Shown here piece after piece: positions 290 through 61,361 of a DNA stretch of 64,000 bases. The position numbers were made by a program, and so were the translations under genes. Position 1 is the stretch's first letter. Every line of letters starts with the position of its first letter. The stretch is from Tubulanus polymorphus (Eukaryota > Animalia > Nemertea): NCBI RefSeq assembly GCF_964204645.1, contig NW_027437461.1, positions 31,001-95,000 on the forward strand, written 5' to 3'. The notes beneath the pieces were generated by a model. It did no database searches and was not told the origin of the DNA. It saw nothing but the letters and a program-made list of their open reading frames with translations.

Positions 290-1373
290 ATGAAAAAAGA
301 ACAATATTTAAGAGAGTTATATTATAACCCAGAGAGTGAAGTATCATATTCTAACGTTTCAGAATTATGGAATAAAATTAAATCTGATAATGAAAATAAA
401 ATATAGTGAACTAAGATTATGGTTACAAAATCAACCAACATATCAAAGCCATAAGAAAATGGATAAAACTTATTTAACAAGAAAAGTTATGGTTTCATAT
501 ATCGATCAACAATGGCAAGCTGATTTAATTGACATGAAGAACTTAGAAGAATACAACAAAGGATATTTCTGGATACTGAATGTTATAGACATATTCAGTC
601 GATACGCATGGTCAATTCCAATCAAAAATAAAACTGGTATAGAAGTGACAAATGCTTTTAAATCTATATTTAAAGAAGCTATTCCAGATAAGATACAATT
701 TGATGAAGGTAAGGAATTTTATAACAAATATTTTAAAAAACTATTATCTGATAACGATGTAGATTATTTTTCAACACATTCAGATAAAAAAGCATCTATT
801 ATAGAAAGATTTAATAAAACATTGAAAACTAGGAATGTGGAAATATTTTCCTGCTAATGAAACATATAAATATATCGATGTGTGAGATGATTTAGTGAAA
901 GGTTATAATAATTCTAAACATAGTTCTATAAATATGAAACCTATACAAGCTAGAAAAGAAGATAATTCAGAAATAGTTTGGAATAATTTATATGGAGCGT
1001 TTGTTACACATGATTTCGGCGAACCTAAATTTAAGATTGGACAACATGTAAGAATATCTAAATATAGAAAAACATTTTATAAAGGTTATACCCCTAATTT
1101 TACAGAAGAAATATTCAAGATAAAAAAGATAATATTAACTAAACCATTTGTTTATAAATTGGAAGATTTACAAGATGAAGAAATATTAGGTTATTTCTAT
1201 GAACAAGAATTATCACTTGTACCAAACCCAGATGAAATAGAATATAAAATAAAAAAGTATTGAAAACAAAAACTCTTAAAGGAAAAAAGTATTCTTTGGT
1301 GAAATATAAAGGATATGATGATAAATTTAATGAATGGATTTTATCTAGTAAAATTAAAAGAATAAATGAATAA
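290..1373 (+). pseudogene. Retroviral-type (rve) integrase with C-terminal chromodomain
   Basis: ATG at 290 (MKKEQYLRELYYNP); DDE core QWQADLIDM, VIDIFSRYAW, IQFDEGKEF, ASIIERFNKTLK; KGYTPNFTEEIF; chromodomain LVKYKGYDDKFNEWI at ~1296-1340. Frameshifts near 390, 835 and 1255 and an in-frame TGA near 883. Confidence 0.92.
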
Positions 1374-1978
1374 AGATTTATTTATATTTGAACCGCATAA
1401 TATGTTAGTTACTGGAGTAACCAATTGTGGTAAAACACATTTCATATTAGATTTGTTAGAAACTATTTATAAGAATCATTTTGATAATATAATATTATTC
1501 TGTCCTACTTATGAAATGAATAAAACATATAATAGAGATATAGTTGAGATAAAAAAGTTTATTATATTAAATCCTAAAACAGGAAAAAGAAAATTTAGAT
1601 AATTGTATTAAAATAGCAATTGATACTTATAAAGGATCAAATACATTATTCATTGTAGATGATTGCGCAAATTTACATGATTCAAAAGTGAGAGAAAGTG
1701 AGTTATGTTATTTAGCTTTCTCTGGGAGACATTTCGGGATAACAATATGGGTTTTAAATCAAAAATATAATTCAATTGTTAAAGACTTTAGGGAGAATAT
1801 AAGATTTCTAGTTTTATTCTACAATAAAGATAGAAAATCTATGCAACAATCATTGGAAGAAAATCAAATTATACCAACTGAATTACATGATGAATATATG
1901 AATAAATTAAAGAATAATAAAGGTTCAAAATTATTACTGAGACTACAATTTCCCTATGAATATAAATTTATAAAATAA
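1366..1978 (+). pseudogene. A32/FtsK-like DNA packaging ATPase
   Basis: Walker A GVTNCGKT; Walker B LFIVDDC (~1646-1666); SGRH, LNQKY and FREN motifs; frameshift near 1585. Confidence 0.9.
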
Positions 1979-1996
1979 CTATTTATATATCTATGT

Positions 1997-2073
1997 ATTA
2001 GATACCCTAATACCTGATACCCCATTAGATACCCTAATACCTGATACCCTATTAGATACCCTATTAGATACCT
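1997..2073. repeat. Short tandem repeat (TTAGATACCC / CTGATACCC variants) between convergent genes
   Basis: About 8 ATACC-containing units of 6-12 bp between the ATPase stop and the stop of ORF 2132-3025. Confidence 0.8.
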
Positions 2074-2131
2074 TAAATACTTAAAACCCCCTTTTTTATT
2101 TACTATTATTTTATACAATTTTCAACCTTTA

Positions 2132-3025
2132 TTACTTTTTGAGTGTTAGATAATTACTTTCTGAATCACTTTCACTATCAGACCCTAACAAGCTATTCAA
2201 TTTCTCTACCGTATCTTCTTCTAATTCTTCATTATTTTTATACTTATTCTTCGCCATTTTTACCGCATCATCAATAGTTGTTTCATTGTTATGCTTATTC
2301 TTCCAATCAAATTTATCTTTATTATCAATGCGCTTTCCTGTATTTTCATTATTATCTTTATTAGTGTTTGCTCCTAATATTTCATTTACAGTGTTTGATC
2401 CTAATATTTCATTAGCATCGGTTAAATCTAATTCATCTTTATTAGGTGTTGCTAATAAAAAATCTTCATATAATTCTTTACCATTTACTTTTTTATTTGA
2501 AACAAACTTTGTAACATATCTAAATGGGTGTTCTATAAATTCTCTTAAACCAACACGTTCTATAACATTAGTAATATGTGAATTTGTATTCATATGTTTA
2601 TTCCAATTTGATGGAGCGTTTGAAAATTCACCTTTACAATAATCACAATAATTTCTATTTTTACTAGCATTTAATATTATTGCATTATTATATGTAGAAG
2701 GTATTACATTATTAGATGTAGCAGGTATTACATTATTAGATGTAGTAGGTATTACATTATTAGATGTAGTAGGTATTACATTATTAGATGTAGAAGGTAT
2801 TACATTATTAGATGTAGAAGGTATAACATTATTATCAATTACATTACTTAAATTATCAACAACTTCACTTTTATTATTATCGATTTCTATTAGTTTAGTT
2901 TTATAAATTTTGAAAATAGGATCAAATATCAAAGCTATATTACAAGGTTTTACATAATATAAACCATCATTATTTTCATGTGTATCGATGTATGGAATAT
3001 GTTTATATACTTTACCTCCTTCCAT
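2132..3025 (-). CDS. Polinton accessory protein with 8-aa repeats and a C2H2 zinc finger
   Basis: Intact 297 aa ORF; six NNVIP(S/T/A)T(S/Y) repeats (24-bp unit at ~2690-2835); YCDYCKGEFSNAPSNWNKHMNTNSH; acidic serine tail. Confidence 0.7.
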   Translation of the reverse strand: MEGGKVYKHIPYIDTHENNDGLYYVKPCNIALIFDPIFKIYKTKLIEIDNNKSEVVDNLSNVIDNNVIPSTSNNVIPSTSNNVIPTTSNNVIPTTSNNVIPATSNNVIPSTYNNAIILNASKNRNYCDYCKGEFSNAPSNWNKHMNTNSHITNVIERVGLREFIEHPFRYVTKFVSNKKVNGKELYEDFLLATPNKDELDLTDANEILGSNTVNEILGANTNKDNNENTGKRIDNKDKFDWKNKHNNETTIDDAVKMAKNKYKNNEELEEDTVEKLNSLLGSDSESDSESNYLTLKK

Positions 3026-3057
3026 TTATTATATATATTTTTATTAAAGTTAAAATT

Positions 3058-4310
3058 TTAATACATAACACTATCTAATTGTGAATTTACAATATTTAAT
3101 TGTGCGTCAGATATAATATAAATGTGCATTTTAAAATTTTTGATTCCTTTATTTTTTGTCATGAATAATTGTATTCCATCTTTAGTGTTTTGTAGTTTTT
3201 TTCTAGAACCATGTAATGAATTATCCTCTGTTGTTCTAAAATCTAACCATAATGCATATTTATTACCGGTATAATAATCAATTTGATTAATATTACAATT
3301 TTCAGATGATTTCACTTTTTCATTCATAAAATGTTTTCTAATTTCTGGCCATTGATCTATCATTCTCATTCCTTGACAAAATATTTTATTTGCTATTCCT
3401 TCGATAGTTATTTCTACTTTTGTTATTTCAGGATTATAATAATTATCAACATTTATTGCGCCATTAGTATATGTTGCAATGGTAAAAAATATTAATATAC
3501 CTTTAATAGATCTTCTTGGTAAGTTAATATTCTCATTAATAATTTCATCATTTGCATTAATAGTTACAGTTTTAAATTTATCAATATAATCATATAATAA
3601 TGAAAATCCTTGATTGTATAAAGTTTGAATTATACTTGAAATATTTTCATCAGTTACTATTATCAGTCATATTCCAAACATATATTCGATAATTTATAAC
3701 TCATATCTTTATTAACGCTAGATATTACGATTTCATTAACAGGAGCAAATGTTATTTCGAATATAACGTCTTCTTGAATTGCGTATTTATATAAAGGTGC
3801 ATTGTTATTTATCAATTCAAAGTCTAATGGAATTTTATATTTGCTTCCATATATACTTTTTATAAATTTATCTACAGCATTAGTTAATATTGCATTATGT
3901 GCTTCTGATCTTAATTTATTTTGGTTTTCTGATTGGATTCCTTGAAATATCATATTATTTCTATTTTCTTTAGTTAACCATAAATCTTTATAATGCATGA
4001 ATAAATTATAATCATCTAATGAGAAAACTGTTTCTGGACCAATCTTTATAGTTAATTTTTTAATCAAATATCTTCCAACATTATCAACAACATAATTATT
4101 ATTATTACCGATTACTTTTATATCGGCTGATAAATAAATACTATTTGGAACATAAAAAGTATTTTGTGTTAATCGAGGGATTCTAACATATAAAGTTTCA
4201 TCGGGATTAATATTAGAAGGGTTATGAGTAATTATATGATGTGATCTTTCTGCTTTAATAGCATTAGATATTCTATGATTCTTAGAAGGATTTATGTAAC
4301 TTCCACTCAT
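3058..4310 (-). pseudogene. Major capsid protein (double jelly-roll, group II Polinton/adintovirus type)
   Basis: N-terminal HIITHNPSNINPDETLYVRIP, middle NINLPRRSIKGILIFF and YNPEITKVEITIEG, C-terminal KYALWLDFRT...LHG...DAQLNI. About 415 aa after joining across a frameshift at ~3662. Confidence 0.82.
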
Positions 4311-4330
4311 TTATTTAACAAAAAAATTAA

Positions 4331-6757
4331 TTATTTATTTTTTATCATATTCACTAACCCAAAAATAATTGCACTTACAACTGTAATTAAAAATAAAATA
4401 ATATGTTCAGCAGCAAAGTTAATAATGTTTCCTGCAGATTTCAATATAAAACCAACAATTGATGCAATAATTCCTGGTAAAGCTGCAGCAGATTTCTTTG
4501 ATAGTTCCCATAAATATTTTGCTAATTTCTTTAAACCATCCTTAACTTTATCTTGTATAGAATTATTATCATTCGGGGGTTTATCTGGTTTATTGGGAGT
4601 AGGAGTAGATTTCAAAGAATTTGATATTGCTAAACCAATTGTTGTGAATAACATAGTTACAGCCGTTAGAATTGAAAGAATTGTTATTCCTTCAAACTTA
4701 AATAATAATTTTATTCTATCTTTCAATGATATTCTAGAATCTGGTTTTATTAGATATCTTTTAAAATCATCTTTTAATCTATCAATATTATAATCATATG
4801 ATTTTAATAATAATTTAATTTCTTCTTTTTGTAATTCTATGTTATATTCTAAATCATCTTTTTCTTTTTCTAAACGTAATTCTTTTTGCCTATATTCTAT
4901 TTCATCAATAACTTTATTATCTCTATCTAATTTTAATTGTTCTATTTCTTTATTTTTATCAGTTAATTCTTTTTCTAAAAATCTAATTTTAAAATCTCTT
5001 ATTTCTTTTTCATGCGCAATTTTATCAGATGCATGTCTTATACTAATAATCTCTCTAATTGCTTTATCAGAAAATATATCTAAATCTTCTAATTCTTGAT
5101 CTGTTGCATCAAGTAATCCCTTCGGTAAAAGTTTTTCAGTTTGAACTTCTCTTGAATTAGGTCTACTAGTTTTGGAAGTTATATTCTGTTCAGAAGTTGT
5201 TTCTGGTTCTAAATTATTATCGATTGTTTCAAATAATTTATTAATTCTTTGTTTAAATACTCTTTCATTTTTAATAATTTCTTCTTGTGTTACATCTTCT
5301 GGTTCATTACTATTTCTTATTCTTTTAATTCTAGATAGGTCTAACTTAAGCAAAGTTGATTCTGCTAATATTTTGTTTTGTTTTTTATAAGAGATATCAA
5401 TATAATAATCATCTTTCAAACGATAATAATATTCACCATCTAAAAACTTTAATTCTTGTACTAAAAGTCTGGCGCCTCTGGCATTTATATTATATCCAGA
5501 TTCTTCAAATACATGTTTGAAATTATAAATATATTCATTATATTCTAAATTTTCCTTTAAAACTCTTCAGTTGGCGTCACCACGCCTCACGTGACAGCTT
5601 AAACAAAGAGACTAGGTCGTGGTCACGCCTCAAGTGACGGTTCCTATTACCCCCGATAGATGGCAAAGTAGTCAAGCCTGGCTGCTGACACTGAGTCAGT
5701 ATGCTCTATAGAGAGCCACTATGCTCTATAGAGAGCTCACAAGCGATTGTATATACTCTACACACACAGGCAGTATGTACTGGTTGTCGTCGGCAACCAG
5801 GAATGTGAGTGTTGTATCAGCGGTTTTGGACCATATTCCTTGTTTCGACATATACCATACCTAGCTCAATTATCGCTTAGAACATATCAATCTTTTAACT
5901 AAACAAACTTGCAAAATGCAATCTTATCACTAAATAAACTCTCAAATTAATGCCTAATTATCTGAAAACCCTGGGTCATCTGGGGGGTCAAGATGACCCC
6001 CAGATGACTCCCTGACACGTTTTATATCAAGGAAATGAGATATCTAGAGGATTCAGAGGATCAACATTGAGGAAACCCAAAGAAACCAAACAACTGAGAA
6101 GTGATTACGAAATCAGCGAAAATTGAGCGATTTTCACTTTTTTGAGACCCTGAGGATTTTTTGAAATTTCGGACCCCCCAAAGAATAAAATGACTGCCCA
6201 GGATGGTTTTCTTGTTGTCCTATGATATTATGAAAGAAAATAGCTATTTACTATTTTATTTGTATAAGATTCTGGCTTCTAAAGTGCAATACAAAGACGT
6301 TTTTGGTTGCGTGACCTCAACTTGACCTCAGGTTTTGGGGGGTCCTACCTTGCACCCGTAGGTCCAAACTTTTTATTACTAACATTTTCTGGTAGAGATA
6401 CCTATTAGCTTCATAACAGATATTGGTTTTAGGAGGGTCTCTACACTGGAAATGTATCTAACTTTACATAGAAATCATAAGACAATAAAGGCCAAAATTA
6501 ATTCCCCACATTGAATGGATAATGAAGAAATATATCCCCAGCGGATTTTCATTTTCAATAGGTATTCTCGATCTAGTTCTTCTATCAAATTCATCTGTTG
6601 ATGGGGCTTTAGAACCACTATCTGCTAAATTAGAATTATATGCTGATTCATTACCATCATCAATATTAGTTTCTGCATCATTTTAATCATCATCAATATA
6701 TCCTTCATTATTATTTCCCATTTCTCCCATTTCATAATCTTCTCCGCCTTCTGCCAT
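4331..6757 (-). pseudogene. GasderminX-like coiled-coil membrane protein, interrupted by insertion 5567-6544
   Basis: Starts MAEGGEDYEMGE at 6757 with an in-frame TAA at 6683-6685. Removing the insertion restores IENEN-RVLKENL in frame. A long coiled coil is followed by hydrophobic/amphipathic helices SLKDRIKLLFKFEGITILSILTA...LPGIIASIVGFIL. Confidence 0.72.
5567..6544. mobile_element. 978-bp non-autonomous insertion without TSD or TIR
   Basis: Higher GC than the flanks, clean in-frame rejoin of the host ORF, internal hairpin at ~5975-6008; the boundaries can slide by 1 bp. Confidence 0.7.
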
Positions 6758-6773
6758 TTACATAATAAAAAAA

Positions 6774-8158
6774 TTAAAATTTAAAATATAATATTCCTCC
6801 GATTACAATTCCTATACAAGTTATAGCTAATTTAGTATTTTCATGGGATTTATTATCATCATTTAGTTTAACTATTTCATGTTGAATATTATCAGTTTTT
6901 ATATTTTCTGATGTATTGTAATCTTTTATTTTAGAATCATTATTTAATTTAATATTATTAGTTTTAGTTTCTGTTGATTGAATGTGTTTTTTATTTTTTT
7001 CACCTTCCATTAATTTTGGAGCAGTAATAATCTTTTTATTTATATCATTCAATCCAAATGAATTATTTATTGTTGCAGTTTTAATTAGATTATTATAACC
7101 AATTATATTTCCCATCTTTAATACTAAATCATTAGAAATAATCAATAGATTAGGGCCCATACAATAATTTAATCTAATATGTGATTTATCTTAATAATTT
7201 TGATATCTTACAATGTTTTCCGGAATCGATCTATTTTTATCATTATGAAGGGAATCTTCAAATAATACTTTAAATTGTTTCTGTGTATCAAATGATGTAT
7301 TCAAATTTCCAATTATTGGGGATCTTGTTTCAACTTGTGCACCTAGAATACATATCAAATAAGTTCTAATAGATTGATTTATTCTTTGTATACCAGCTTT
7401 AGTAAAACATTATTTTCTAAAATGAAATAAACCCAACCGTTATTGTTTTCTTGTTTCAAATTATCATAAAATTTCGGTAATTTATTGAAATTTAATGTTT
7501 CTAAATCCTTAGTTTCTATTTTACCATAACCTAATTTATTATTATAGATATTATAAAAACTATTAGATGGTATGGGAAGTGCACAATATTCTGCAATCTT
7601 TTTAGGGCAAGGAAGTGATCTTATTGTTCCAATTTTTGTTCTAAAATCAGAATTATTTATATCTATATTAAATTCATTACAAATTTTATAAAACTTTGAT
7701 AAATTAATATTATTATCTAATTCTTTAAAATATCTAGATCCTGGTAAAGCACACTCTAATTCATTTAATATTATTCTGATTTGAAAGTATGTATGAAATC
7801 TAAATAAACTTTGAATTAATTTATATTTAGAATTATTCAAATGATCATTCCAACTTATCCCACATCCTGTTGTTGCACAATAAACAGCAAAATTTAATTG
7901 GTTCTGCCAATACTTCATATTAGATTTTAATAACCATTGTTTTTCATCTTTCAATTTTTTAAAATCAATTAAATATACATGAAATATATTTTCCATCTTT
8001 GCATTAAAATTATTAGTTTCAGTAACATAAATTTCTAAATTAATTAATGAATCTAAAACTTCATTTCTATATATAATATCTTTATTAAAATCTATTGCTG
8101 GAATATTATATTTAATTGATTTGTTATATTGGAAAGCTTTTGGAAAACTATCTACCAT
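6774..8158 (-). pseudogene. Conserved hypothetical group II Polinton protein with C-terminal TM anchor
   Basis: ORFs 7379-8158 and 6774-7160 join across a frameshift at ~7410; YWQNQLNFAVYCATTGCGIS, FRFHTYFQIRIIL, YLICILGAQVETRSPIIG, IIGYNN; C-terminal LAITCIGIVIGGILYF. Confidence 0.7.
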
Positions 8159-8174
8159 TTATATAATTAAAAAA

Positions 8175-8609
8175 TTAATAATTTATTAATTCTTTTAATA
8201 ATTTATCTTGTTCTTCAACTGTTATATGGCCATTTAAACTTATTATATAATCTAGTGTATTCTTTAATTTATTAATTTCTTTTATATTAGTTTTAATTTT
8301 TTCTTTATTACTTTTTATATTTAATTTTGAACTTATACCAGTTAAAACACTTGAACTTAATCCTAATACACCAATTGATATAGCTAAAGGTGTTAATGGA
8401 CTGAATATTGCTAAAAATGTTATTACAGAACTAATTGTAACCGAACCACTGGTAATAAGATAATATACAATTTTACTTTTTAGATATTTTTTCTTTTTTA
8501 TCTTTAAGTCACTTTCAAATTCTAATATTTGTTTTTCTAAATATATTTTTAATTTAGTTTTATTTATATCATGAGGAATAATATCAATACTATCAACTTT
8601 ATCTTCCAT
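8175..8609 (-). CDS. Polinton two-TM protein with coiled coils
   Basis: Intact 144 aa ORF with a central hydrophobic hairpin. Confidence 0.7.
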   Translation of the reverse strand: MEDKVDSIDIIPHDINKTKLKIYLEKQILEFESDLKIKKKKYLKSKIVYYLITSGSVTISSVITFLAIFSPLTPLAISIGVLGLSSSVLTGISSKLNIKSNKEKIKTNIKEINKLKNTLDYIISLNGHITVEEQDKLLKELINY

Positions 8610-8625
8610 TTATTTAGAAAAAAAA

Positions 8626-9051
8626 TTACTAATTAGTAAATTTATAAGCAACAAATATAACAATAACAGTTCCGCCTAAAATCCATATTATTTCATATTT
8701 CTTCTGTTCATTACTTGGGGTATATTAATCTGATAATTTAGGTTTGTATAGATGTAATTTTTCTTTATTTGTTACCGCATTATATAAACTCATTGCATCA
8801 TCAACTGATTGAAAATCTCAATGTGAAATCTTCTGATCATATAATTCTTTATTGATGTAATCCATATAGTTTTGTCTCTTTTCTCTATATTCTTCTGCAG
8901 CTTTATTGTATTTCTCTAACGCTAAGTTATGTCTTCTTTGTTCTCCTAATGAACTATTTTTATCAATATGTTTAAATAAATATCCACCACCAGTAAATGC
9001 CAAAGCGTTAACAATTGCCGATCCTATAATAGTTATAATTGCAGAAGCCAT
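8626..9051 (-). pseudogene. Polinton small membrane protein (N- and C-terminal TM)
   Basis: MASAIITIIGSAIVNALAFTGGGYLF...RRHNLALEKY; the frame continues past two in-frame stops to YTPSNEQKKYEIIWILGGTVIVYFVAY. Confidence 0.68.
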
Positions 9052-9075
9052 TTATTTAGCAAAAAAATTATGCAT

Positions 9076-9297
9076 TTATATGGGAGGAATATATTTTTGT
9101 TTTTCCAAATAATCAATAGTTAAATTAGATAAAATAACTGCTAATGTTAATTTTAAAATATTATTTATATCAAATCTATCAACATTAACACTTCCCATTT
9201 TAAATACTTTTTTTAATACCATTGAATAACCAACAGTTCCAACTGATAGTAATGCTCCATTATATAATCCAGTTATTATCCACTTATTATCACTCAT
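9076..9297 (-). CDS. Polinton small hydrophobic protein
   Basis: 73 aa, two hydrophobic helices, ends DYLEKQKYIP; start in TAAATG context. Confidence 0.68.
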   Translation of the reverse strand: MSDNKWIITGLYNGALLSVGTVGYSMVLKKVFKMGSVNVDRFDINNILKLTLAVILSNLTIDYLEKQKYIPPI

Positions 9298-9653
9298 TTA
9301 TTTATCAAAAAATTACTATCATCAAAATATTTAGTTATCTTATTTATGATTAATTCGACATTTATTTCATTACTAGTTTCATTTGTATATATTTCAATTA
9401 TTATTTTTTTAATATCATCGATGATAAAATCTTCATCTAATTCATAAAATCTTAAAGATTCTCTAATTAAATTAGTAATCTTTTCTACATTTAAAGTTTC
9501 TTTATCTATTGTTTTTTCATACTCAAATGTTGTTTCATTAGAAAATGCAATATTTTTAATATGTGTAATTACATCATTAACGTTAAATTTCATTTCTTTC
9601 TCACGTTTAAAATCAAATCCAAAACATATGCTCGGTCCGACCGTTATATTCAT
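9294..9653 (-). CDS. Polinton hypothetical protein
   Basis: Intact 119 aa ORF in the gene array; start in TAAATG context. Confidence 0.6.
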   Translation of the reverse strand: MNITVGPSICFGFDFKREKEMKFNVNDVITHIKNIAFSNETTFEYEKTIDKETLNVEKITNLIRESLRFYELDEDFIIDDIKKIIIEIYTNETSNEINVELIINKITKYFDDSNFLINK

Positions 9654-9669
9654 TTATATAGTGAAAAAA

Positions 9670-10423
9670 TTACTCTTTACATCTTATAACTAATTCATAA
9701 ATTACAGGGAAATTATTTAAATCAATTAAATATCCATTATGATTTCTTATTTCTAATTTAAAATTATTAAATTTAGGAATGCAAGGTTTGAAATCACATT
9801 CTGTTAAATTATAATTTATTTGCGTTCCAAATTGTTTAACATTTTAAATGGTAAAATATTTAATATACTAGAATTACAAGTTATATCTTTAGTTGCTTCA
9901 AATGTTTTTGTAGGATTAATTTAATTGCAATAAATATAAAAGTGTGTAAAAGTCATTATATTTGTATAAGTTTCAATACTTGAATAATGTCTATCCGGAA
10001 GTATTCCAAACAGTTTATCTAAAGGTTTTCTTACTAGAAATCTATGTTGTTCATTAGTTAACTTTATTCTTATTTTATTCGAACTATCACTTTTGATAAA
10101 TTTAATTTCAAATCGAGCAGCTGAGCCCATTTTTAAACGAGCTCTTTTATTAATTTCTTGCGCTAATGTTTCTAAATTATATAATCCTGGTTTTAGATAA
10201 AGATGAAACCATTTATTCAAATTTCTAACATAATTTTTAAAGCTAAATGATCAAGACTTTTATTCGATATATTATGAAAAGAATTACATAAACTTATATT
10301 AACTAATTTTAAATCAACACAATTCTTGAATTCTCTATCTAATTGTACTAGTAAATTATGTGATTTATAATTTGTAAGCCTTCTAGAATCAACAAATATT
10401 CTGTATTCTTTTAATTCTACCAT
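9670..10423 (-). pseudogene. Minor capsid protein (penton, single jelly-roll)
   Basis: IFVDSR, LKLVNISLCNSFHNI, LKPGLYNLETLAQEIN, HFYIYCN-LIN, C-terminal KLEIRNHNGYLIDLNNFPVIYEL; several frameshifts. Confidence 0.75.
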
Positions 10424-10440
10424 TTATTTTACATATTTTC

Positions 10441-10782
10441 TTATTCGAAATCTATTTCATGGTGCCCTTTTTCATTCTTACCTTTGTATACGAAATAGAA
10501 ATCACCAGAACATAATTCTTCTAAATCTTCACTTGATAATCTATGAAATCTATCCGGTAAATATGTTCTGAATTTATGTGTATTTCCTTTTAATCCTTCA
10601 TATTCTAAGTGTATAACTAATTTATCTCCATATTTGTTAGTAACTGTATCAATATTTGTAATTAGATATTTCTTATGGATTGTTAATTCTGTTAACTTCT
10701 TAAATTTATAATCTACAGATTTTACATTTGAAGTATCTTTTATTCTATTTAAGAATTCACTGTGTGCTTGTTTACTCTCCAT
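10441..10782 (-). CDS. Small probable OB-fold (SSB-like) protein
   Basis: 113 aa; FKKLTELTIHKKYLIT, TNKYGDKLVIHL, YLPDRF and FVYKG pattern; lies next to pPolB. The function is inferred. Confidence 0.55.
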   Translation of the reverse strand: MESKQAHSEFLNRIKDTSNVKSVDYKFKKLTELTIHKKYLITNIDTVTNKYGDKLVIHLEYEGLKGNTHKFRTYLPDRFHRLSSEDLEELCSGDFYFVYKGKNEKGHHEIDFE

Positions 10783-10811
10783 TTATTATACATATTTTTA
10801 TTAAAATTTGA

Positions 10812-13013
10812 TTAACACGTTAGAATTCTTTTCATTATCTCGTTCTCTTTTGTTTCTTCTCTTTTAAATTTTAAGTATTCATCTAAATTACAACCATAAG
10901 CAACTGTATGAATTCCATCATCTAAAATATATCTTTTATCATCAAATGGGTTTAGACTTATCTTTTCAATTTCTTCAATAAACATTTCATGATCTTCAGA
11001 TCTTAAACATCTCATTTTATGTTTTCTAACTTCTTCATTGAATATACAATTGATGTAATCTTTGAAATGAATATTCTTTTCTACTACACTTTTGGTTATT
11101 CCTTTTAACTTTTTAGCTTCATGTTCTTTAGTTTTATATGAATACATTTTAGATCTAATACCTATGAACTCTATCATTTCTTCGCCACCTAATTCATCTT
11201 TGAATTTACCGGGAACTTTTTTATTATCATTGCTAAACAATTCATGATCTTTAGGATAATTACTGAAATCAAAATGATGTTTTAATGTTTTTAAATCATC
11301 AGTTATGTTATCAGTTTTTATCTTTAATATGTAACTGTCGGTATCAAAATATAATATTTCTATATGTTTTTCTCCAAAAGTGGTTGTAATACATTATAAT
11401 AGAATTCATACATTAGATATTTTGATAATTCTAAAACTGATGCGCCAACATAGATTGGTTTATTAAATTTCATTGATGTTCTTCTCATCTTAACTGCAGC
11501 TAAATTTTCATCAAATATTCTGTTACCAATGAACTTAGGATATGATTGTAAATGTCTAATTCTTTTACCATTACTGACTAACTCAATATCATTTCTATTT
11601 CTAATATTTTCACAAGTCTTACCATAGAATGCATTATTCATTAGTTTGAAGAAATCTTTCTCGAAATCAGTTTTAGCTTCAGTTCTCTGTTTGGTGTTAA
11701 AATCTATATATTTTTCTAACCACTTAGATTGACTGAATGAAATATATCTATGTACTTTTTTTAGGATCATTCCTTGTTTTAGATAAAACTTTAACATTCT
11801 ATAATGTACTACATAATTATATTTATCTTCCTGAGTTACCATTAACTTTTCTGTATGAATATGATTTTCAGGTTTAATTCTTTTTTGATAATTTGATAAT
11901 TCTTCATGTGTTACAGTTTTATGTTCGGGGCAGTATGCTAGATTTCTAGATTTAAATTTTTTATCTTCAGGATATTCTAAATCTACAACAAAGAAGTAAC
12001 CAGTATCTGAATCATCTGCAATATCTAGAATTCTTTTCTTCCAATCAAATTTATCATTATTTTCATTCTGTAAAACTTCAGTTAATTCAAATACTCCATA
12101 AGGTTGTGGTTCCATCATTGCCCAACCATACAAATTATTTGCATCTATATATAATAACTTATCCAGGGTTATCATTTACATTGAAATATCTATCACCTAA
12201 TACACCTGAAACTCCTCCTCTTATAGATTTTTCAAATAATAGTAATTGATCTATATTTGTTAACAAATCCATTTTTATATCTGTAAATTTTAATCCACAA
12301 TCCCATGTTAATACTGGTGATGAATAACAATGACATGGATTAATGTTAAAATATTTTAGGTTTACATCTCTAAACCTTTCGAATATATCGGTTAATAATA
12401 ATACATCTGATTTTAAATATATATCTACTAATTGCCCATGATTTTCTATTTTGAAATGATTCCAAATATTCAATGTTCTATTATAGACTTCATCTTTAAC
12501 ATATTCATTTTTTAATTCATCATAGAATTGTTCTTTCAATAATTCAGTTATGTTAAAATCATTATGATTTTTATAGAAAGAATATGGAATTGCTCCTTTA
12601 TATCTCATTAATTGAAAATCATCATTATTTGGGTAATATTCTTTTAATATCTTTAATTCATCATCAACTAATGATTTTGATAAGTTATCTAATGAACTAT
12701 TTAAAAATCTATATGAATCTATAAATCTTAAACACCCAAATTGGAATGATATATAATTCTCAGATGTTTTAGCTAACATTCTAAATTTATAAGTTGGTAT
12801 TTTATCTTTTGATCTATTTGAATTTAATCTGTCTATTTCATTATTAATTTCTTCTATTTTATGGCATAACTGTTTGATAAATAAATGTGCGTCATATCCT
12901 GATAGATTATGAAATATAACTGGTACAAAGTTAATTTTCTTAGCTTGTAAGTTACAATTCTCATGCGCAGCACCCCTAAACTTTCCATTCAAATGATTAT
13001 GGTCTCTTACTTT
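10812..13013 (-). pseudogene. Protein-primed family B DNA polymerase, C-terminal part
   Basis: VRDHNHLNGKFRGAAHENCN, ExoII FHNLSGYDAHL, ExoIII YLKSDVLLL, motif A YIDANNLYG, motif B KLMNNAFYGK, motif C YFDTDSY (~11331-11352), KMY, DDKR; frameshifts at ~12165 and ~11362. Confidence 0.95.
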
Positions 13014-13059
13014 TTAGGGTTTCTGCTGCTTTCGCAGAAACCCTCTTGTAATTCTGTTG

Positions 13060-13101
<42 letters not shown>

Positions 13102-14246
13102 TTTCCCCTTTCCAGCCAAAAATTTTTCATAAAATGTAACTCCTCTCAGATTCGACTACTAGCAGCTTATAAACCTAATTTTCAATTATGAAAGAAATAT
13201 AACTCAGCGCCTGACCATTTCCAATTTGCGTATTATAATTGATTATGAATTAATCCCGCGTAATTATTTGGTCTAAACAGGAAATAAGAATGTCGCAAGA
13301 ATCATCATCCATTGATAAATGTACATCGTGAAAAGCCTGCAAATTACCCGACGACCTTGAGCTTCAAAATAAATCACGGATTCGGATTTATAAATCGGGG
13401 TTCGACCTACGACATCCATTCAATGTTTTCAGATTTCGTGCGCATGCGTCAATTTAGCTCGGACGCCATTTTCTTTATTTTACAACGTGCGACGCCACTC
13501 TACGTTACTTGCATTTTTACGACTTTGTTGTGTGTTTCTGTGACCAATCTTCAGAGAGGTATGTATATATAACGGTTAGGCCTAATATGATGTATTTTTC
13601 CACGTAATCTGACGACTGGTATTAAAAGCCGACCGGAATTCGTCTTGATCCGCGTGTTGTGGTAGCAGTCGGGTCTGGTTGGTGTGAGATCGATATCGAA
13701 TCCCGCATGACTTACGCATAGAAGTAGCTTTTAAAAGGCCAAATTTGGGCTAGGTGTTAAGGTTGACCCAATGCGTATGATTTAATAATAGTGTTTGTGG
13801 TATGGGTAGAAAATATTTAGGCCTATATAGACAGCAGCTTAAATATTGAATAATGGGATTTGAACTGCACTAGTGTGTGTGTGTCTGTGTGCGAGAGCAG
13901 GGAGCACTCCATCTCCCTGACCCTGTGACTTATGATTAAGCCACCCGATTCTGCTGAATGCGAACAAGTCATCAGGTTTTCGTGAATGTGAATAAATACT
14001 ATAAGAAGGGACTGCCAATTTTAATGAACACAGAAATATCTTAATTGAAATCGTATGTCAGCTAATTTCAAATTGAAGGCCTATTATACATAAATTACAG
14101 TACACTCCGCCCACTCATGTCAGACCATTTGGGAGTGTAAAAATGTATCCTGCTTTCTGGATCTGATTCAAGCTTAAGTCTACTGTTTGTATATTCAATC
14201 TACCTAGGCCCATAGGCCTAATTGTGCCTGCCTAATTATTGGGGAA

Positions 14247-15054
14247 ATCGACAATGTCAGGTTCTTGAATTTCTCGACTGATGGCGCTAGTTAGAACTGG
14301 ATATTGGTACCTAAATCTGCCATGTTCTAGTTTATTTGCAATAAAAATCTGGCCTCTCAATTTTTTAGTAGGCAGTAGTTATTTTACTGGATCTGGTCAC
14401 TGACTTCTGAACGCTATTTTGCAAAATATTGTCTCTAAATTGGCTGATTTACTACGCACATGCGCAAAGAGGTGCGCGGCTTAGATAATTGGAAGGAAGT
14501 GTGGAGAACAGAGTTTACCCGGACCAGTGAATTACTAGCCTAGCGTCTTCCTATTAGATCACAGAGCTCATTGAAAACCATCCGAATGTTTTAGCTACAT
14601 TTAGCCTCACCTAACCCTAACCCTATCCCTACTTGTGAAATCGAACCCTGTGGACCCTCTTCTCACCCTCTTGACACTAACCCTATCCAAACCCTTACCC
14701 TAAACCCAATAAAATGATTTAATTGTTACATAATAATTGGATTTGGCAAAATAGCGTTCAGAAGTCGGTGACCGGATCCAGGTTAAATATGCACTTCCTT
14801 TTTAGTAAGTGTATTTTACGTACATACATCATCACGTTTAATCCTTTAAGTATGATATCCTGGAAATCTGTTAGATTGGACAAAACGTCAAAAATTTTCC
14901 AAAAATCACAAATTTAGTGAAAAAAAATGCTCATTAAAAACTTGAAGCGAGAGATCTTTATTGCAAATCAACAAAACAAGGTGGATTTAGGTTCCAATTT
15001 CCGGTTCTGACTAGTGCCATCATACGAGTAATTCCAGAACTTGAATTTGTTGAT
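14247..15054. mobile_element. Long-TIR MITE nested in the Helentron (same family as 34434-35226)
   Basis: About 120-bp imperfect TIRs (ATCGACAA...GATGGCGCTAG / CTAGTGCCATC...TTGTTGAT). Confidence 0.8.
14371..14798. mobile_element. MULE-type MITE nested in the MITE
   Basis: GG...CC ends, ~50-bp imperfect TIRs, perfect 9-bp TSD TTTTTAGTA, internal CCCTAA-like repeats. Confidence 0.8.
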
Positions 15055-15654
15055 ATTTGTATTGGCATCATTCCTTTTCTAAAACGGAACCTGACGACCA
15101 ATTATTCAATTTCCTATTTATTTATTTTTTTAAACAAGACTCATCATGCAGGTATTCCCCGCAACAACAGGTTTCAGAGGGAAGACCACCCTTTTATTTT
15201 TGTTTCAACCCATCTTAAAATGAGCCACCAATCGGTAATCGGGCGAACCATAATAGTGTTCACTGCCTGTTTTAATACTCGTCGTTGCACATTTGTTCAG
15301 GATACTACGTCTAGCCTATGTGGGTTATAGGGTTTATTCCAAAAGTTTGCAAACAAAATCCAGTTAATTTGTTTAGTTTTGGAGACATTTTTGATGCATT
15401 GTTTTCAACACATTTTATTCAATTTTCTTCCAATCTTGCCATCAACCAAACCCAGCGGAGCTATCACAGCTGACAGGCTGCTTGTTCAACACACCATACC
15501 TATTTGTAGCAGGTGTCACCTATTGTTTCGAAATTTTAGAGAAAGTTCCTACAGGCTGATTAATAATGCTGTGATAATGTTTCTTTTGTGATAGGTCACA
15601 TACTTGATACTTGTTGATACTTGAAATAGGATATTGATCAGTACATTACTCATC

Positions 15655-18189
15655 ATGCCTAAAAGGAAAAGAAGAGCTGGTAGCTTTCAGCCGAAGAAGG
15701 TAAGACCCTCTTTTCATAGGCAAATGTTAATCTTCTAGTAAGAAGTATGTAGGCCTTTTTTCCGAGTAAAAAATTCATTAAACTGTTCATCACATGTGTT
15801 AGCTGCGCAATATTTTGGTGCCTGATTTTGGTATTTTATCAGAAAAAACCATATCAGTAAATCATAAACCAGTTGCTTAGAGGGTGTGTAACTGACCAGT
15901 GTCGTATCATCCCTGGTTCTTGTTGAGATAATTATAAGCTATTGAATTGAATTGAACTCATTAGAAAATTCTACGAACGTATAGTGAATGAATTTTTTTT
16001 CTATTTTCAGAAGGTGGAGGTGGTTGGAGTTCCCTCAGCCCTAACTGGACAAAACAGAGAGATGAAAAAAGGATCAATGGAAAAAAATTATGAAAAATCT
16101 CAAGATGAAGACTACAGAAGAGTTGAAAATGAAATCTTAAATGAAAACCTAAAAAACGCTCAAAATGAAAACTTTAACGAAACGCAAAAAGAAAACTCTG
16201 ATAACAATCAAAACAAGAAGTATGAAGTGAAAATCAATGAAAACTTTGAACCAAAAACTAATGAGAACTATGAATTGAATGCAAATGAAAAAGATGAAAT
16301 GAAAATGACTGAAAAACATGGAATGAAAATGAATGAAAAATATGAAATGCATATGAATGGAAACTATGATTTGAAAACAAATGAAAAAGATGAAATGAAA
16401 ATGACTGAAAAACATGAAATGAATATTAATGAGATCTATGATCAGACTATGAATCAAAATTGTGGAACTAATTCGAATGAAGATATGACAAAAAACAAAG
16501 TTGAGACAATTGAAGTGAAATCAGTTTTTTGTGACTTCAATCATGACAACTGTGATACGATTATGCATGACAACTATGATAAGACTAAACAAGGCAACTA
16601 TGATAAGGCTATATATGGAATCTGTGAAAAGATTACACTTGACAACTGTGATAAGATTCAACATGATAACGCTGGTCACAATATACATGAAACCTCATCG
16701 AAAATGAAAGCTGACTCATCTATTCAACCAATTTCGAGTATGATTTCGTGTAGAGATTGTGATGGCAATTTTGGTAACAGTGAGTCATGTTTAAGTGCTG
16801 AGAATATGAGATGTTCATCAATTCATGGAAATTTCCACCAGGGTCATCCAAAATACGATATTCATTCAGGTAAGCAATGTAACAAATGCATTAGCTGCAA
16901 TGATTCATGCATCAAATAAAGCTGTAATAAACTGGATGCCTCATGATATTGATTCAGTATTGAATATTGGAAATGATTTATACGCAACATTGACTAATAT
17001 GAATACAATAACAAATATGTATTTATTGATCAGTGAGCTACCAACTGCTGTTGAGATTGGAAATTCCATTTATAATGTGACTGTTGGATCCCCTCAAGTT
17101 GCTATATCTGAATTATCTGATGAAATGAGAGCTGGAAATTTTGGAATTATCAGTGAACTACATGAATGTTTGCACAATAATCTGCTTAATTACGACACAT
17201 GCTTTATAACATTTGCTGGAAATACATTTTGTGTTTTAAAACAGGATGACATGTACTGGGTATTTGATTCACATTCGAGAGATGCATCAGGAATGATGAC
17301 CGCTGATGGACATGCTGTATTAGTAAGGTACTCTTGTGTTAATTGTATTGTCAAACATTGTCAGAATCTTGCAGCTTCAATGAATCAGAGGCAACCAATA
17401 CAGTATGAAATTACAGTGGCTTCTATCAACCATGAAATTGAAACTACTGTAGAGAATAGCATTATCGAAGCAACGACTACATACTCTCCAAACTACCAAC
17501 AAACAAGTAGTGAAGATGAACTGCCCTATACAAACCCAAAAGTAGATGAATGCGATGTAATTGTTACTAGTGAATCCGTGCAGCATGATGATTTAATTTA
17601 CAACCCACTAGAAAAAGGTCAGTGCAAAACATTATGCTCTATTCTAGGTATTCATTGTCGACCCTCAACTCTCGGATATGAATGTATGCCCAAATATGAT
17701 GGACAACTCTACTCTCCATGTAATACGCAGAAAATTAAAGGCGATGGAAGCTGTTTTTTTCGGGCAATTTCATATTCAATCTGTGGAACTGAGCAATATC
17801 ATCGGGCTATACGCACCGAAGTTTTAAAGCACATGCGGCAGAATTCCGACAAATTCCAACCACATCTGAGAAATCCACAACTTACTATAAATGAGTATAT
17901 TGATGAATCCCGTATGAAATATACAGGTACTTGGGTGACAGAGGTTGAAATTCTTGCAACAGCTGATTTACTGCATGCTGATATATATACATTTGTAGGC
18001 AATGGTTGGTTACGATTCGCTGGTTCTACTTTCAGTGCACCAAATCGTGTGTGTGAATTAAATGGCAACATTTATTTGAAAAATTGCAGAGGTGTACACT
18101 ATGAAGTTGTGTCATGTGTGAAACAATCTGAGGAATGTATTTGCTCTTGGTGTGGCAAGCGACAAAATACTGAAAAAACTAATGAGTAA
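15655..18189 (+). pseudogene. Spliced Helentron gene: NLS, repeats, herpes-tegument-like deubiquitinase/deneddylase (peptidase C76-like) and OTU protease; truncated
   Basis: Exon 15655-15699 (MPKRKRRAGSFQPKK, GTAAG donor) splices in frame to 16011. GNFHQGHPKYDIHSGKQC/VTNAL with a frameshift at ~16880 and YWVFDSHSRD; OTU IKGDGSCFFRAIS, TWVTEVE, GVHYEVV. Confidence 0.82.
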
Positions 18190-18220
18190 ATACAGTTTAT
18201 AAACTGTATTTACTCATTAG
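18179..18220. repeat. Perfect 42-bp palindrome
   Basis: CTAATGAGTAAATACAGTTTA|TAAACTGTATTTACTCATTAG. Confidence 0.95.
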
Positions 18221-19639: not shown

Positions 19640-21476
19640 TTTATCTTTATAATTAAATATCTTTTCACAATAATAACATTTATCTGCAAACGCAAATTCT
19701 TCTTTATCTTCTTCTGTCATTATAATTTCTATATTTGTATTCAATAATTTACTAAATCTTATTTCATATTCAATTAATAAGTCACAAAAATGATTTATAA
19801 CATTTTCATTTCTATAATTATGATATTCACTTTCAATTAGTTCTGGATAATCAGATTTAATATATAACCCGAAAGCCGCAGCTGATTGATGAATCTTTTT
19901 AATAGTATTTGTTTTTGGTGGTTCTTCAGAATAATCATTTTCATTAGAATTTAATTTCTTTCTCTTATAATATATTTCTTTTCTATCTTGATCAGTTAAT
20001 TCTTTATTTAATGATTCAAAATCTCCATATATAACAAATGGAACTTTATTTTTGTAATCATATTTTTTGAATTCCAATATTTTATCTTTTTCATTTGGTA
20101 AAACTAATTTACAATAATCATGATTTTCACATAATTGTTTATGATTTAATAATGCACTTTCATTACTGAATCTATGTAAACATTTTCTACAAAGATATAT
20201 TTTATTATCAAAATCATTTTCTGATTTAAAATAAATCAATTCTTTTAATCCACATATAATGATTTTCATAATATAATATATCTATAACATCGTTTGAATC
20301 GTAATCTTTTGATAGGTATAAAGGTTCTAATGTATAATGTTTTATATTGTTACCTTTTGTATTTGGTAATTTGATTAACTCAAATACATTTATTCTTAAA
20401 TTATTATCTCTTTCTATTTTTGGGATGTTTTTAATTATAACAGGATACTTATCTATCTTATAATTATTTTCAAATGGTTTATAATGAATTAATCTAAAAC
20501 TATGTGTAATATCTTCTGTTGGATGTAAACAACTTATTATAGCCCATAGAAAACATTTATCATCAAAATTTTGTACATTTATTACAGCATTAGTTTAAAT
20601 GGTAGTTTAATATAACTCCATGCTTCAATATCTGGTTCTTTATAATATAATACATTATTTTCATCAATTGGTTTTGATTTAGTTAACTTATTATATTTTG
20701 TGTTATAAACATGTAAAGTCATAAATATTATTTCATCAAATATTAAACCTGATCCTTCAAAATATTTCTCTCCTATCTTAGTTGTTACTTCATTATAACA
20801 TTTATCTAATTTATCATCTATATGTTGTTTAGATATAATATGTTGTGAATGAGAATTTATATTATATATTGGTTTATCTTCAGATTTTATAAACTTAATT
20901 ACTATAAATTAATATACTAATTTTAGGATATTAAACATCTGTAATTATTTTTATTATTTCTTTCATATTTTCTAAATGTTTTTTATTTTCTTCTAATGTT
21001 TTTCCTTTATGAAATTTAAACTCAATAGCTGCTGGACCAATATCACTTTTAAATGCTTCGGTTATCTCTATATCTTTTTTATTATCTAATGAATTAATAT
21101 AATTTCTTACATCTTCCATGTATGGTCTTTTATTGTTTAATTTATTTCTTATTCTTTTAATTGTCTTCTGTTTCTTATCATTATCTTCATCAAAATAATC
21201 TTCACCTAAAATATCATTATTCTTATTTCTAATATGACTTTTAGATTTTAAATGTTCTTTATAATATCTTTTATCACTGAATGATTGATTACATGTATCA
21301 CATTTGTATGTTTCTTTTTCATTCTTTAATTCATCTAATTTAGTTTCTAATATATCATCTTTATATTCTAGTTTCAATTTATTCTCTAAATGTGTTTTAG
21401 TTTTATTGTGTCTTGCTTTTTGGGATTTATCTATATTGATATTACATGTTGGACAGTAGTACTTATTTGCTTCCAT
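19640..21476 (-). pseudogene. pPolB polyprotein N-terminal part: zinc fingers, terminal-protein region, vOTU-like protease, ExoI
   Basis: Two C2H2 fingers (CPTC..H..H, CDTC..H..H); FEGSGLIFDEI (~20735-20765); NVQNFDDKCFLWAIISCLHP...ENHYMWIK; CRKC finger; VIYGDFES; CYYCEK. Several frameshifts. Confidence 0.88.
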
Positions 21477-21555
21477 TTTAATACTAAATTTTTTATTAAA
21501 ATTGATTTTAGAAGTTATTCATTTATATTTTATTCATATATATGAATATTTTAAG

Positions 21556-21817
21556 AGTAATAGGGAAAAATCTTGTTTCATATCAAAGGTTGAAAGGGCT
21601 AGTGAGTAAAAAATGAAAAATATGAAAATAATAATAATTTCTATTTGAATTAGGAGTGAAACTCATATAAAATGAAAAATAAATTCGAGTGTGCGAGAAT
21701 TATTTTTCATTTTATATGAGTTTCGCTACTAATTCAAATAGAAATTGTTATTATTTTCATATTTTTCATTTTTTATGAGCTCGACCTTTCGAATGAAACA
21801 AGATATTCCCTATTACT
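21556..21817. repeat. 262-bp foldback (near-palindromic) element
   Basis: AGTAATAGGGA...TCCCTATTACT; arms of ~125 bp pair around a short CGAGTGTGCG centre. Confidence 0.9.
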
Positions 21818-42800: not shown

Positions 42801-45800
42801 CATATAATTCAATATTCAACTCCCCTTGGTGGTAAACCCAGTTCCACGTGAGATGAATCCTATAGCAGTGTGGTGACAAATATCAAATTTCAAGACTGTA
42901 AGCCAAGTCCTGTTGATATTTTCCTCAAAAAACCCTTTTTCTATATATGAATGGGGACTGATGATGACACTAAGATGGCCACCAACTCTGTGACAATTGA
43001 CAACTGATCAAAATAAACTTCTGATACGTTTAAGATGCCTTCCCAAAGTATGCCAAAATTCATTTGTGAGCACAAAACAGGTCATTTTGCGCCTAATTGG
43101 CTCAATCTTTCTTGGTTTGATGGATATACCAACATATCTAAACGACCAAGACAATTGGTTGAAGTGTCTTCAAAATTTTCCTTGTAAACATCAAAAAAGG
43201 ACTGTGGTTCCAGTAGGATCAACGGAGTACAAAATTCTTTTGAGCACAAAAATTGAATTGTTCTGGGATTTGCAATAACGTATAAAGATGAAATCTGGGT
43301 GCACAACACCACCGTAGTTAACAGGTTTAACTATGATGATATACAATGTACATGGTACATTTTCCCCATAACTCACTAGTAAATACGAGAACGATCAATA
43401 CCATTGGCGATCAATCCAAATTTAGAAAATATTGGCAGAAACCATAGGAAAGGGTACAGTACTCGACGGAAAAACTATGTTTGTTCTATAGACATTGAAC
43501 TTGGATGCTTAAGAGCTCTCCCAGTGATGTCATTATCAAGAAGCATCAATTCAAGCAAAAATAAGTAGAAAGGGAAAAGATTCATTGAAATTTTGCTCAT
43601 TTTCTGATCTGAGTAAATCTGAATGTATTAAGAGCTGATGAGCGAAACTCTGAATGTTACTTGTAACCTTTATTTCCCTCCTAATGACAAAATATCAGTT
43701 GTGTATATCCAGTAGTTACAACTTGTGCCACCAGAGCTAACAGAAATTTACTCTCTGGACATTCTATAAGGAATCCACAAGTTTGATATGTAAAATGGGC
43801 GGATTTTGGCAAACAAAAATGGCCACCAGTCGGCCATCTTGAATCTGACCAGGCTAGTTTTTGGGCTGCAGATGTGCCCAGGGTAGATTCATAAACCAAC
43901 CATCAAAACAATCTATTGAAGCATCTTCAAATCTTCCCAAGATAACAGGACTCCATCTACAGACAGATTGAACAGATGAAAAGCGAACGCGATAGCATGC
44001 TGGGACTGAAGTCACACATGGGCTAAAAATTCACTGAGAGACACTGGTGTTTGCTTGATGTTAGTTCTGATTTCGGGATGTTTTTATAGGACTGAACGTA
44101 AAGGGGTAAAATGTAATCCATAACTCTGGTTCCCAAAATGCAGGATGTTAACCCATTGAGCAGAGTATAAGGGCAAGGACACCCGCCGAAAACAGAAAGG
44201 AATGAAATGTTTCCCTTACGTTTGACCAGCAACAGTTGAGCTTCGTGCTTGAGCCATAACAAGTAAGCGTTTGAGAAAGTTCAGACGTAACTCAATCCAA
44301 CGTTCTTGTGGCAACACAAGCATTGCCATACAACACCAGTACAACGGGGAGTCAACCTCAAATGAATTCTCAACATATTTTGTGATTGGTTGATCAAGAA
44401 ATACAGTAATGTTCTTTTCTTCTTGACTAATTGACCGAGTTCTGAAAAACAGTGCAATAACAGCATTTTACACTTTGGACTCTAGAATACAATATACCAT
44501 ATTATGGCTGCCCATAATACCTACGTGTTCATAACATAAAGAGCCATATGCATTAGATAAGGTGCAAGATGCATATTACTCTGCCTGCCACCACCACCGC
44601 TTTCATCACTGAATGACTTCTCACATGCAAATCTTTGTAATAACAGCTTCAGGTCATGAACAGTGAAAGTGTATGTTGAGTTGTGAACAGCTGTACATTC
44701 TTGTAGGTATGTATTGTGACGCGCTAGACAGTTCGCAAATGCTGACTCAGACACCAGCGGTCCCCATAATGGCAGCAGACCATTACACTTGGTATTAGCA
44801 TTTTGCAATGCAGCACTTTCCCATTCCTCACGACCTCGGGCATGTCTGAAAGAAATTCCATATAGACTACCCATCATCATACAAAAAAGAACATAACAAT
44901 CAAGTATTATCCCCATCATAAAAATTCACAAATACAATTCTACAACAGATGTCCAGGGCATTTCTATACATCAGTTAATTGCTGAAACACAAAAAGTACC
45001 TTTAAAATCATTGCTGTGATGGTCAGTAGCAATTTTTCATGAATTTTTTTTGTTTTTGAACACTTGACACCAATGAATCATGTATTTCATTTAATTTTTT
45101 TACATTTCTTGGTTTTAGAGATAGCCGCTGACCTCGGCTCATACCAATAATTGCTTATTGGATACTTGATGTCATACTGCATCAAATTACACATTTTTGC
45201 CTTAGAGAGTGCTCTCGAGGTCCTGTTTATTTTTCAATATTGCTACTCTTAAGTTGGTTCATTTAAAGAAGTGCTCATGGCCAGCCTACCTCTTTTTTTT
45301 CATGAAAATAATGCAAATTTATGCAATATCTACCATATGTATAATCTACGCAGCGTAATCTATTCGTCAACTAACATGGACGGTGGTTGGCAAGAACAAA
45401 TACTTCAGATTGATATGTTTACCCTATGATTTTCTATGAATGCTGAATCAAATTCAATTCGCTGATCTGTTTCAAGATCTAACTTAACTTATATGACTAT
45501 TAATAAATAAGTGGCATTGTAGCATATAATGTGGGATTTTGGGGCCATTGCAAATTTCATGCATAAACTGTCAGGGTGGAAAAATTCATGAAGATACATA
45601 AAGTAACCACAGAGTTAATTCATGATATGAACAGCAGAAAAAAATCCAATAAAGGACCAGTAAACTGCATTTAATTTTTGAGCACTTGATTTGTTCTGGG
45701 ATTTACAATAAATGTAAGGATGAAACTTGGCATGCTGTTCAACTCTGATGATATATATGGTTATGGGTTTTCCCTCACTAGCACGTGAGAGAATAATCAA

Positions 45801-61245: not shown

Positions 61246-61361
61246 CTATGAATTCAATTAATTTCTTTTACTCTTGTGAAGACCAATTCATTAAGTCGAA
61301 TCATCTCAAATAGGTCTAAATTGAACTGGGTTCAGTTGGGTAAGTTTCTATGGATAATGTA

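Follow-up and report, generated by a model that had tools for sequence, protein, structure and literature searches.

Introduction

Several satellites carry the promoter of their helper in front of their own genes, as described for Mavirus and CroV, Sputnik and mimivirus, and Gezel-14T (PgVV) and PgV (PMC6723459, 10.1101/2022.07.28.501842). These satellites belong to protist hosts and mimivirus-related helpers, use other motifs than the one considered here, and were shown by culture to depend on a helper. Here we analyze a Polinton in a 64,000-nucleotide stretch of the marine worm Tubulanus polymorphus (Nemertea; NCBI RefSeq assembly GCF_964204645.1, contig NW_027437461.1, positions 31,001 to 95,000, forward strand), referred to below as the window. 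Like the element, Mavirus has a protein-primed DNA polymerase B (pPolB) and a retroviral-type (rve) integrase, and it lies latent in the genome of its host (PMC6723459); the element differs from the satellites above in its animal host, in the pox-type motif at its gene starts and in a helper that is proposed from sequence.

According to a 2025 review, vaccinia late promoters consist of TAAAT(G) preceded by several T's, the best conserved of which is the 10th base upstream, whereas intermediate promoters have TAAA without that T, contain more A upstream and serve mainly DNA-binding and packaging genes (PMC11980589). The Polinton signal resembles these poxvirus intermediate and late promoters in a TAAAT(G) that overlaps the start codon, in a T-rich element peaking 9 to 10 nt upstream in one class of genes and an A-rich upstream element in the other, and in that packaging and DNA-related genes fall mostly in the A-rich class (PMC11980589, PMC5294985). 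It differs in standing in an integrated element without a detected RNA polymerase and in being known from sequence alone. We propose, with a probability of about 60%, that the start signals of this Polinton clade are promoters for the RNA polymerase of a co-infecting pox-like helper, a virophage-like dependence.

A link between the two kinds of virus has precedent in insects, where Polinton-like viruses (PLVs) placed next to mavpol 2 are reported from entomopoxvirus occlusion bodies (PMC11296320). Compared by description only, AHEV_PLV1 and CBEV_PLV1 come from insect occlusion bodies and lack an rve integrase, whereas the window Polinton has one and is present in multiple endogenous copies in a marine worm. 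The main text of that report has 0 matches for 'promoter', 'motif' or 'transcription', and its supplement holds no usable PLV gene starts. The yeast pGKL elements share a TAAAN initiator in a small linear DNA element and encode their own RNA polymerase and capping enzyme (PMC6211774), neither of which was detected in the window Polinton; unlike them, the latter codes for capsid and integrase. The open-access literature yielded no report of TAAATG or of poxvirus promoters in Polintons. Promoter sharing between satellites and helpers is already known, and the new part is the occurrence of a pox-type start signal across a Polinton clade.

Results

A start signal at most genes of a decayed Polinton

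Positions 1 to about 21,600 of the window are a decayed copy of a multi-copy Polinton family, with a GC content of 20-25% (78% A+T). Frameshifts affect most of its genes, and both pPolB and the gene that starts at 6757 are interrupted by insertions. The hallmark genes present are an rve integrase (Pfam PF00665, 9.5e-10), a broken pPolB (PF03175, DNA_pol_B_2, 3e-7 on one piece), an A32-like packaging ATPase (PF04665, Pox_A32, on both pieces) and a double jelly-roll major capsid protein (MCP). The last was recognized through the modelled homologue P0001, which is 79% identical to the window MCP and whose model (pLDDT 87) matches capsids of nucleocytoplasmic large DNA viruses (NCLDVs) and virophages at E values of 1e-16 to 1e-10. 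A C5 cysteine protease, which most Polintons have, gave no match in the window or in the related loci L004-L040 with two distant protease-like queries, the elements being incomplete. PHROGs and PDB sequence searches were uninformative. From its gene content we take the element to be a 'group 2' (mavpol 2) Polinton; the capsid tree used here contains no named references.

In raw whole-genome shotgun reads (run X5), the Polinton body was covered at about 430-720x in bins 19748 to 21091 and the flank at 21988-22883 at 7-11x, which corresponds to roughly 50-80 Polinton copies if the flank is single-copy. Genes and start signals of the window copy are listed below in window coordinates (loci outside the window carry an L number; ORF, open reading frame).

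290..1263, plus strand: rve integrase gene, broken by frameshifts, start context TAAAATAAGATG in place of TAAATG; N-terminus aligns with L004 and L007 from residue 1
1347..1368, plus strand: A-rich TAAATG start signal of the A32-like packaging ATPase (gene 1366-1978, frameshifted)
3023..3046, minus strand: A-rich (TAATAAAAAT) TAAATG start signal of a 297-aa ORF (2132-3025); putative orthologues in L004 and L007 share the signal
4308..4329, minus strand: T-run TAAATG start signal of the MCP gene (3058-4310, frameshifted; fold from P0001)
6755..6776, minus strand: T-run TAAATG start of a long membrane-like gene (about 4331-6757); N-terminus resembles L013
8156..8177, minus strand: T-run TAAATG start of a conserved broken gene at 8158; 67% to L006 from residue 1
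8607..8628, minus strand: T-run TAAATG start of a 144-aa membrane-like gene
9049..9070, minus strand: T-run TAAATG start of a small membrane-like gene (broken)
9295..9315, minus strand: T-run TAAATG start of a 73-aa gene, overlapping with the last part of the preceding ORF
9651..9672, minus strand: T-run TAAATG start of a 119-aa gene
10421..10445, minus strand: A-rich TAAATG start of a putative minor capsid gene (broken), labelled from size and position
10780..10803, minus strand: A-rich TAAATG start of a 113-aa gene, possibly a single-strand DNA-binding protein (SSB); start aligns with L006
10812..21476, minus strand: pPolB, broken and split by an insertion of about 6.6 kb (about 13014-19640; loose ends at 13013-13015 and 19641)
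21474..21498, minus strand: A-rich TAAAATG start signal of pPolB (TAAA form without TG); putative orthologues in L006 and L015 start with TAAATG

The first-pass annotation had reported TAAATG at 11 of 13 gene starts, and all 11 were recovered, together with the two exceptions, TAAAATAAGATG at the integrase start (290) and TAAAATG at the pPolB start (21476). The excess of TAAATG at starts also held against the background: 31 of the 566 other ATGs in the same Polinton DNA read TAAATG (Fisher p 5e-12), as did 16 of 229 out-of-frame sense ATGs (p 3e-10 versus starts); in-frame internal ATGs cannot follow TAA and were excluded as a control. When the first ATG after a stop was taken from shuffled DNA as a control for ORF-finder bias, TAAATG made up 6%. 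Eight of the window starts were compared with related loci by tblastn, and five aligned at or near residue 1; the starts of the genes at 6757 and 3025 and of pPolB had no match in that search and rest on family or position.

The T-run cassettes ascribed to seven of these genes have the structure described, namely TAA-T6-8 ending 5-7 nt before TAAATG. Counted from TAAAT, position -9 is T in 11/11 window TAAATG starts, and position -10 is T in all seven capsid-block (T-run) genes and A in the other four (ATPase, ORF 3025, 10423 and 10782). These four starts share an A-rich core, which also precedes the TAAAATG of pPolB. Intergenic gaps, put at 25 bp or less, are that short for the most part, with two exceptions of 29 and 32 bp.

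TAAATG starts define a lineage of Polintons

An alignment of the capsid retrieved 37 metagenome loci. In a quick tree, the loci with a capsid identity of at least 52% to P0001 fall on one side of a branch with an SH-aLRT of 98, as do all 15 TAAATG-labelled capsid rows. Within this capsid clade (14 loci counted, with near-copies L005 and L016 left out), TAAATG stands at 52 of 64 ORF starts compared to 84 of 2057 other ATGs, and the four GC-richer members (34-44% GC) have it at 12/14 starts and 14/526 other ATGs. Sister Polintons (18 loci, with L026, L038 and L040 left out) have TAAATG at 1/106 starts, including 1/13 in four AT-rich loci (26-32% GC). A further 28 integrase- or pPolB-related loci, two of them from one contig, gave 20/297 starts, with at most 4/13 in any locus. 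The counts for the clade, its sisters and its GC-richer members therefore indicate that the TAAATG signal is heritable, lineage specific and independent of base composition. IMG/VR yielded nothing when scanned for the capsid.

One locus outside the capsid clade, L002, has TAAATG at 7/7 starts; its ATPase is distant, and its integrase is 42-46% identical to that of the clade. This mosaic suggests gene exchange among elements sharing a helper. In the same locus (L002:1-9034, IMG/VR, 38% GC), a protease-like domain is fused to the clade-like integrase.

Upstream bases resemble two poxvirus promoter classes

TAAAT(G) at the start codon, as in poxvirus late and intermediate promoters, is found at 11/13 starts in the window and 52/64 in the clade, and the contrast of an upstream T (late) with an A-rich stretch without it (intermediate) is found as well, as judged against the text description of these promoters, not against poxvirus sequences. 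Across the clade, the frequency of T at positions -9 to -12 is 0.90, 0.77, 0.67 and 0.62. T occupies -9 in 51 of the 59 TAAATG starts, which come from 15 loci including L002, compared to 27 of 88 non-start TAAATG (p 1e-11). When genes were assigned to the two classes by their window copy, their orthologues had T at -10 in 23/26 T-class versus 6/13 A-class starts (p 0.008); because the loci are related, some orthologues were assigned by hand and only TAAATG starts were counted, this two-class model is suggestive only. The split between A-rich and T-run starts may correspond to intermediate and late promoter classes.

Sequence context fits a proposed transcription start

The base at -3 is T in 54/64 clade starts, a poor Kozak context, and +4 is G in 41/64; in sister elements, -3 is A in 58/106 starts. 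Retention of +4 G together with T at -3 is expected if that T stays out of the transcript, as it does when poxvirus transcription begins on the A's with slippage (PMC6211774, PMC7163114). Stop-start coupling was also considered and rejected, as the TAA is the stop of the upstream ORF in just 1/59 cases.

Two supporting arguments of the first-pass annotation did not survive. The T-run had been likened to the poxvirus early terminator TTTTTNT, which occurs at 0/14 convergent gene ends and fits only 4/7 window T-runs, and T at -9 is kept in 16/20 divergent starts, where there is no upstream gene to terminate; the idea was therefore dropped. TTTTTNT follows 6/38 tandem gene ends and is depleted overall (19 versus 49 expected), alongside a depletion of all T- and A-runs. 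Short gaps had been held to leave little room for RNA polymerase II (Pol II) promoters, but the motif-free sisters L021, L024 and L025 have only 4-11 bp between divergent ORFs.

Discussion

A proposed pox-like helper and its rivals

Transcription by a pox-like helper would proceed much as in vaccinia. The helper would supply the polymerase and the intermediate and late factors; initiation would fall on the A's of TAAAT and, through slippage, yield a 5' poly(A) leader, leaving the unfavorable T at -3 out of the mRNA. Genes with the A-rich signal (ATPase, pPolB, SSB-like gene, putative minor capsid gene and ORF 3025) would form the intermediate class, and those with a T-run (MCP and membrane-like genes) the late class; replication and packaging genes would be read ahead of capsid-block genes. 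Without an infecting helper, integrated copies would be silent, as with Mavirus and CroV (PMC6723459).

Of the original case for helper transcription, the terminator and short-gap arguments have gone, and what now speaks for it, by inference, is a signal that is clade specific, independent of GC content, anti-Kozak at -3, not coupled to upstream stops and marked by T at -9/-10. The remark that no RNA polymerase is visible also stands, in that none of 29 window ORF pieces contains an RNA polymerase or capping domain, nor do 30 ORFs of related loci.

Several observations weigh against a pox-like helper. Two motif scans of IMG/VR (14 and 113 loci), scored for all 14 loci plus the 81 with at least 4 ORFs among 116 from L055 on, returned no contig recognizable as pox-like by eye, no family scan being run on them. 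They did return the giant-virus-like contigs L081 and L127, picked by motif, in which 40-70% of starts are TAAATG; TAAATG alone therefore does not name a poxvirus. The hosts of Poxviridae listed by ICTV are insects and vertebrates (PMC12447285). The T peak of the clade lies at -9, one base off the published -10, and the class test covers TAAATG-bearing orthologues only, with some orthology assigned by hand and among related loci. Tests for depletion of AATAAA, splice donors and T-runs did not separate the clade from its sisters. The elements scanned are incomplete, and their left ends and termini could carry a polymerase or activator gene. Finally, roughly 50-80 integrated copies imply that the family must often reach the germ-line nucleus.

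Two of the rivals deny that TAAATG is a promoter. The first, that 78% A+T and a bias of the ORF finder created the pattern, would suit an element of 20-25% GC but is refuted by a background of 5-7% and by the opposite behavior of AT-rich sisters (1/13) and GC-richer clade members (12/14). A translation signal, with TAA-ATG serving in stop-start coupling or as a guard stop codon, would draw on tight packing of tandem genes and on a TAA that is in frame with the ATG by construction; it is largely refuted, given that TAA ends the upstream ORF in 1/59 cases, that 20 TAAATG starts face a divergent gene, that TAG and TGA are not used instead and that the fixed T at -9 would go unexplained. Just as unlikely as a translation signal is a polymerase supplied by a second, cytoplasmic linear element, in the way that pGKL2 supports pGKL1 in yeast, or encoded by an unseen Polinton gene. 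Yeast virus-like elements also use a protein-primed polymerase. They are described as having a TAAAN initiator, slippage-made 5' poly(A) and a polymerase of their own, but their upstream conserved sequence resembles pox early promoters, not a T-run at -9 (PMC6211774), and the 59 ORFs and ORF pieces scanned here contain no RNA polymerase or capping domain.

Two rivals that accept a promoter deserve more weight, and we regard both as unlikely. The helper might be a nucleocytovirus other than a poxvirus, for example iridovirus-, pithovirus- or mimivirus-like, whose late initiator reads (T/A)AAATG: TAAATG is present at 5/7 starts in L127 and 7/12 in L081, and iridoviruses have AAAAT/TAAAT promoter motifs (PMC5294985). 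However, T at -9 occurs in only 2/7 (L081) and 2/5 (L127) of their TAAATG starts compared to 0.90 in the clade, and it is for poxviruses that a TAAAT initiator with both a T-rich and an A-rich variant is described (PMC11980589). Slightly harder still to credit is that host Pol II transcribes the genes in the nucleus from a short initiator peculiar to the clade, possibly aided by an activator that the element encodes, and that the resemblance to poxvirus promoters is convergent. The element integrates (rve; chromodomain in L004 and L006) and is multi-copy, several clade ORFs have no known function, and many starts read TATAAATG or AATAAATG, resembling TATA and poly(A) words. With a TATA touching the ATG, transcription would nevertheless begin within the ORF, given the established spacing of about 24-30 nt (PMC7163114), and the starts combine an unfavorable Kozak base, T at -3, with a retained G at +4. 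AATAAA occurs after the stop at 0/10 convergent ends (background 15% per window) and lies in the sense orientation inside 20/23 window coding pieces, AT-rich sisters being similar.

Wider implications

If transcription by a pox-like helper is correct, undiscovered poxvirus relatives may infect marine worms, and pox-like viruses are predicted in a phylum with none on the ICTV list. Neither the mode of expression of animal Polintons nor their status as autonomous nuclear viruses or satellites is settled, and a clade-wide pox-type promoter would make both directly testable. Start-codon context would also offer a possible way to assign helpers to Polinton lineages from sequence.

Sister elements free of TAAATG have signals of their own. 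TATA lies within 20 nt upstream of the ATG at 10/12 starts in L020 (background 0.033, p 1e-13), 7/12 in L021 and 4/11 in L024; at -45 to -26, these three loci have 0, 0 and 1. Upstream TATA is absent in L027, L028, L033 and L039. The TATA just upstream of starts in L020 resembles the African swine fever virus (ASFV) late initiator TA(+1)TA. Tentatively, and with more doubt than confidence, animal Polintons might be viewed as endogenous virophages whose start signals record their helper, pox-type in the clade and asfarvirus-type (TATA) in L020 and L021, with promoters switched along with helpers.

Ends, insertions and neighboring features

The left end of the Polinton lies outside the window. 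On the right, read depth rises 2- to 3-fold near 21100-21800 and then falls to flank level. Two features beyond the gene block are as follows.

21556..21817, no strand: palindrome with 91-nt arms, AGTAATAGGG...CCCTATTACT, at the right end of the high-depth region; candidate Polinton terminus or adjacent miniature inverted-repeat transposable element (MITE)
44521..44925, minus strand: host UBR4 exon, 98% identical to Tubulanus polymorphus UBR4 (next match 82%), which places the host among nemerteans

The depth of the Polinton relative to a neighboring repeat (23780-24003) varies by run, from about 6:1 in X1 to 1:1 in X3 and 0.65:1 in X5, and is far lower in X4. These differences between runs are only a lead for possible amplification of the Polinton, as sums of contig depth are not copy numbers.

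The membrane-like gene starting at 6757 contains an insert of about 1 kb at about 5560-6543, and a joint in run X1 skips 5560-6543. The 6.6-kb insertion within pPolB (13014-19640) holds ORFs with OTU protease and Herpes_teg_N-like domains (16825-18189) and a repetitive 285-aa ORF. Within ORF 3025, a 24-nt tandem repeat (2654-2869) encodes repeated NNVIPxTS units. For the 113-aa gene at 10782, phi29 SSB appeared only as a weak Atlas match (score 0.84). In L006, a deoxynucleoside kinase gene with a T-run TAAATG start (L006:10340-10981) adjoins pPolB; its three close relatives carry no viral name, so it gives no clue to the helper. Judged by eye, copies of a DIRS-like retroelement, with reverse transcriptase, RNase H and tyrosine-recombinase-like frames, occupy 26400-32500 and 57500-64000 of the window.

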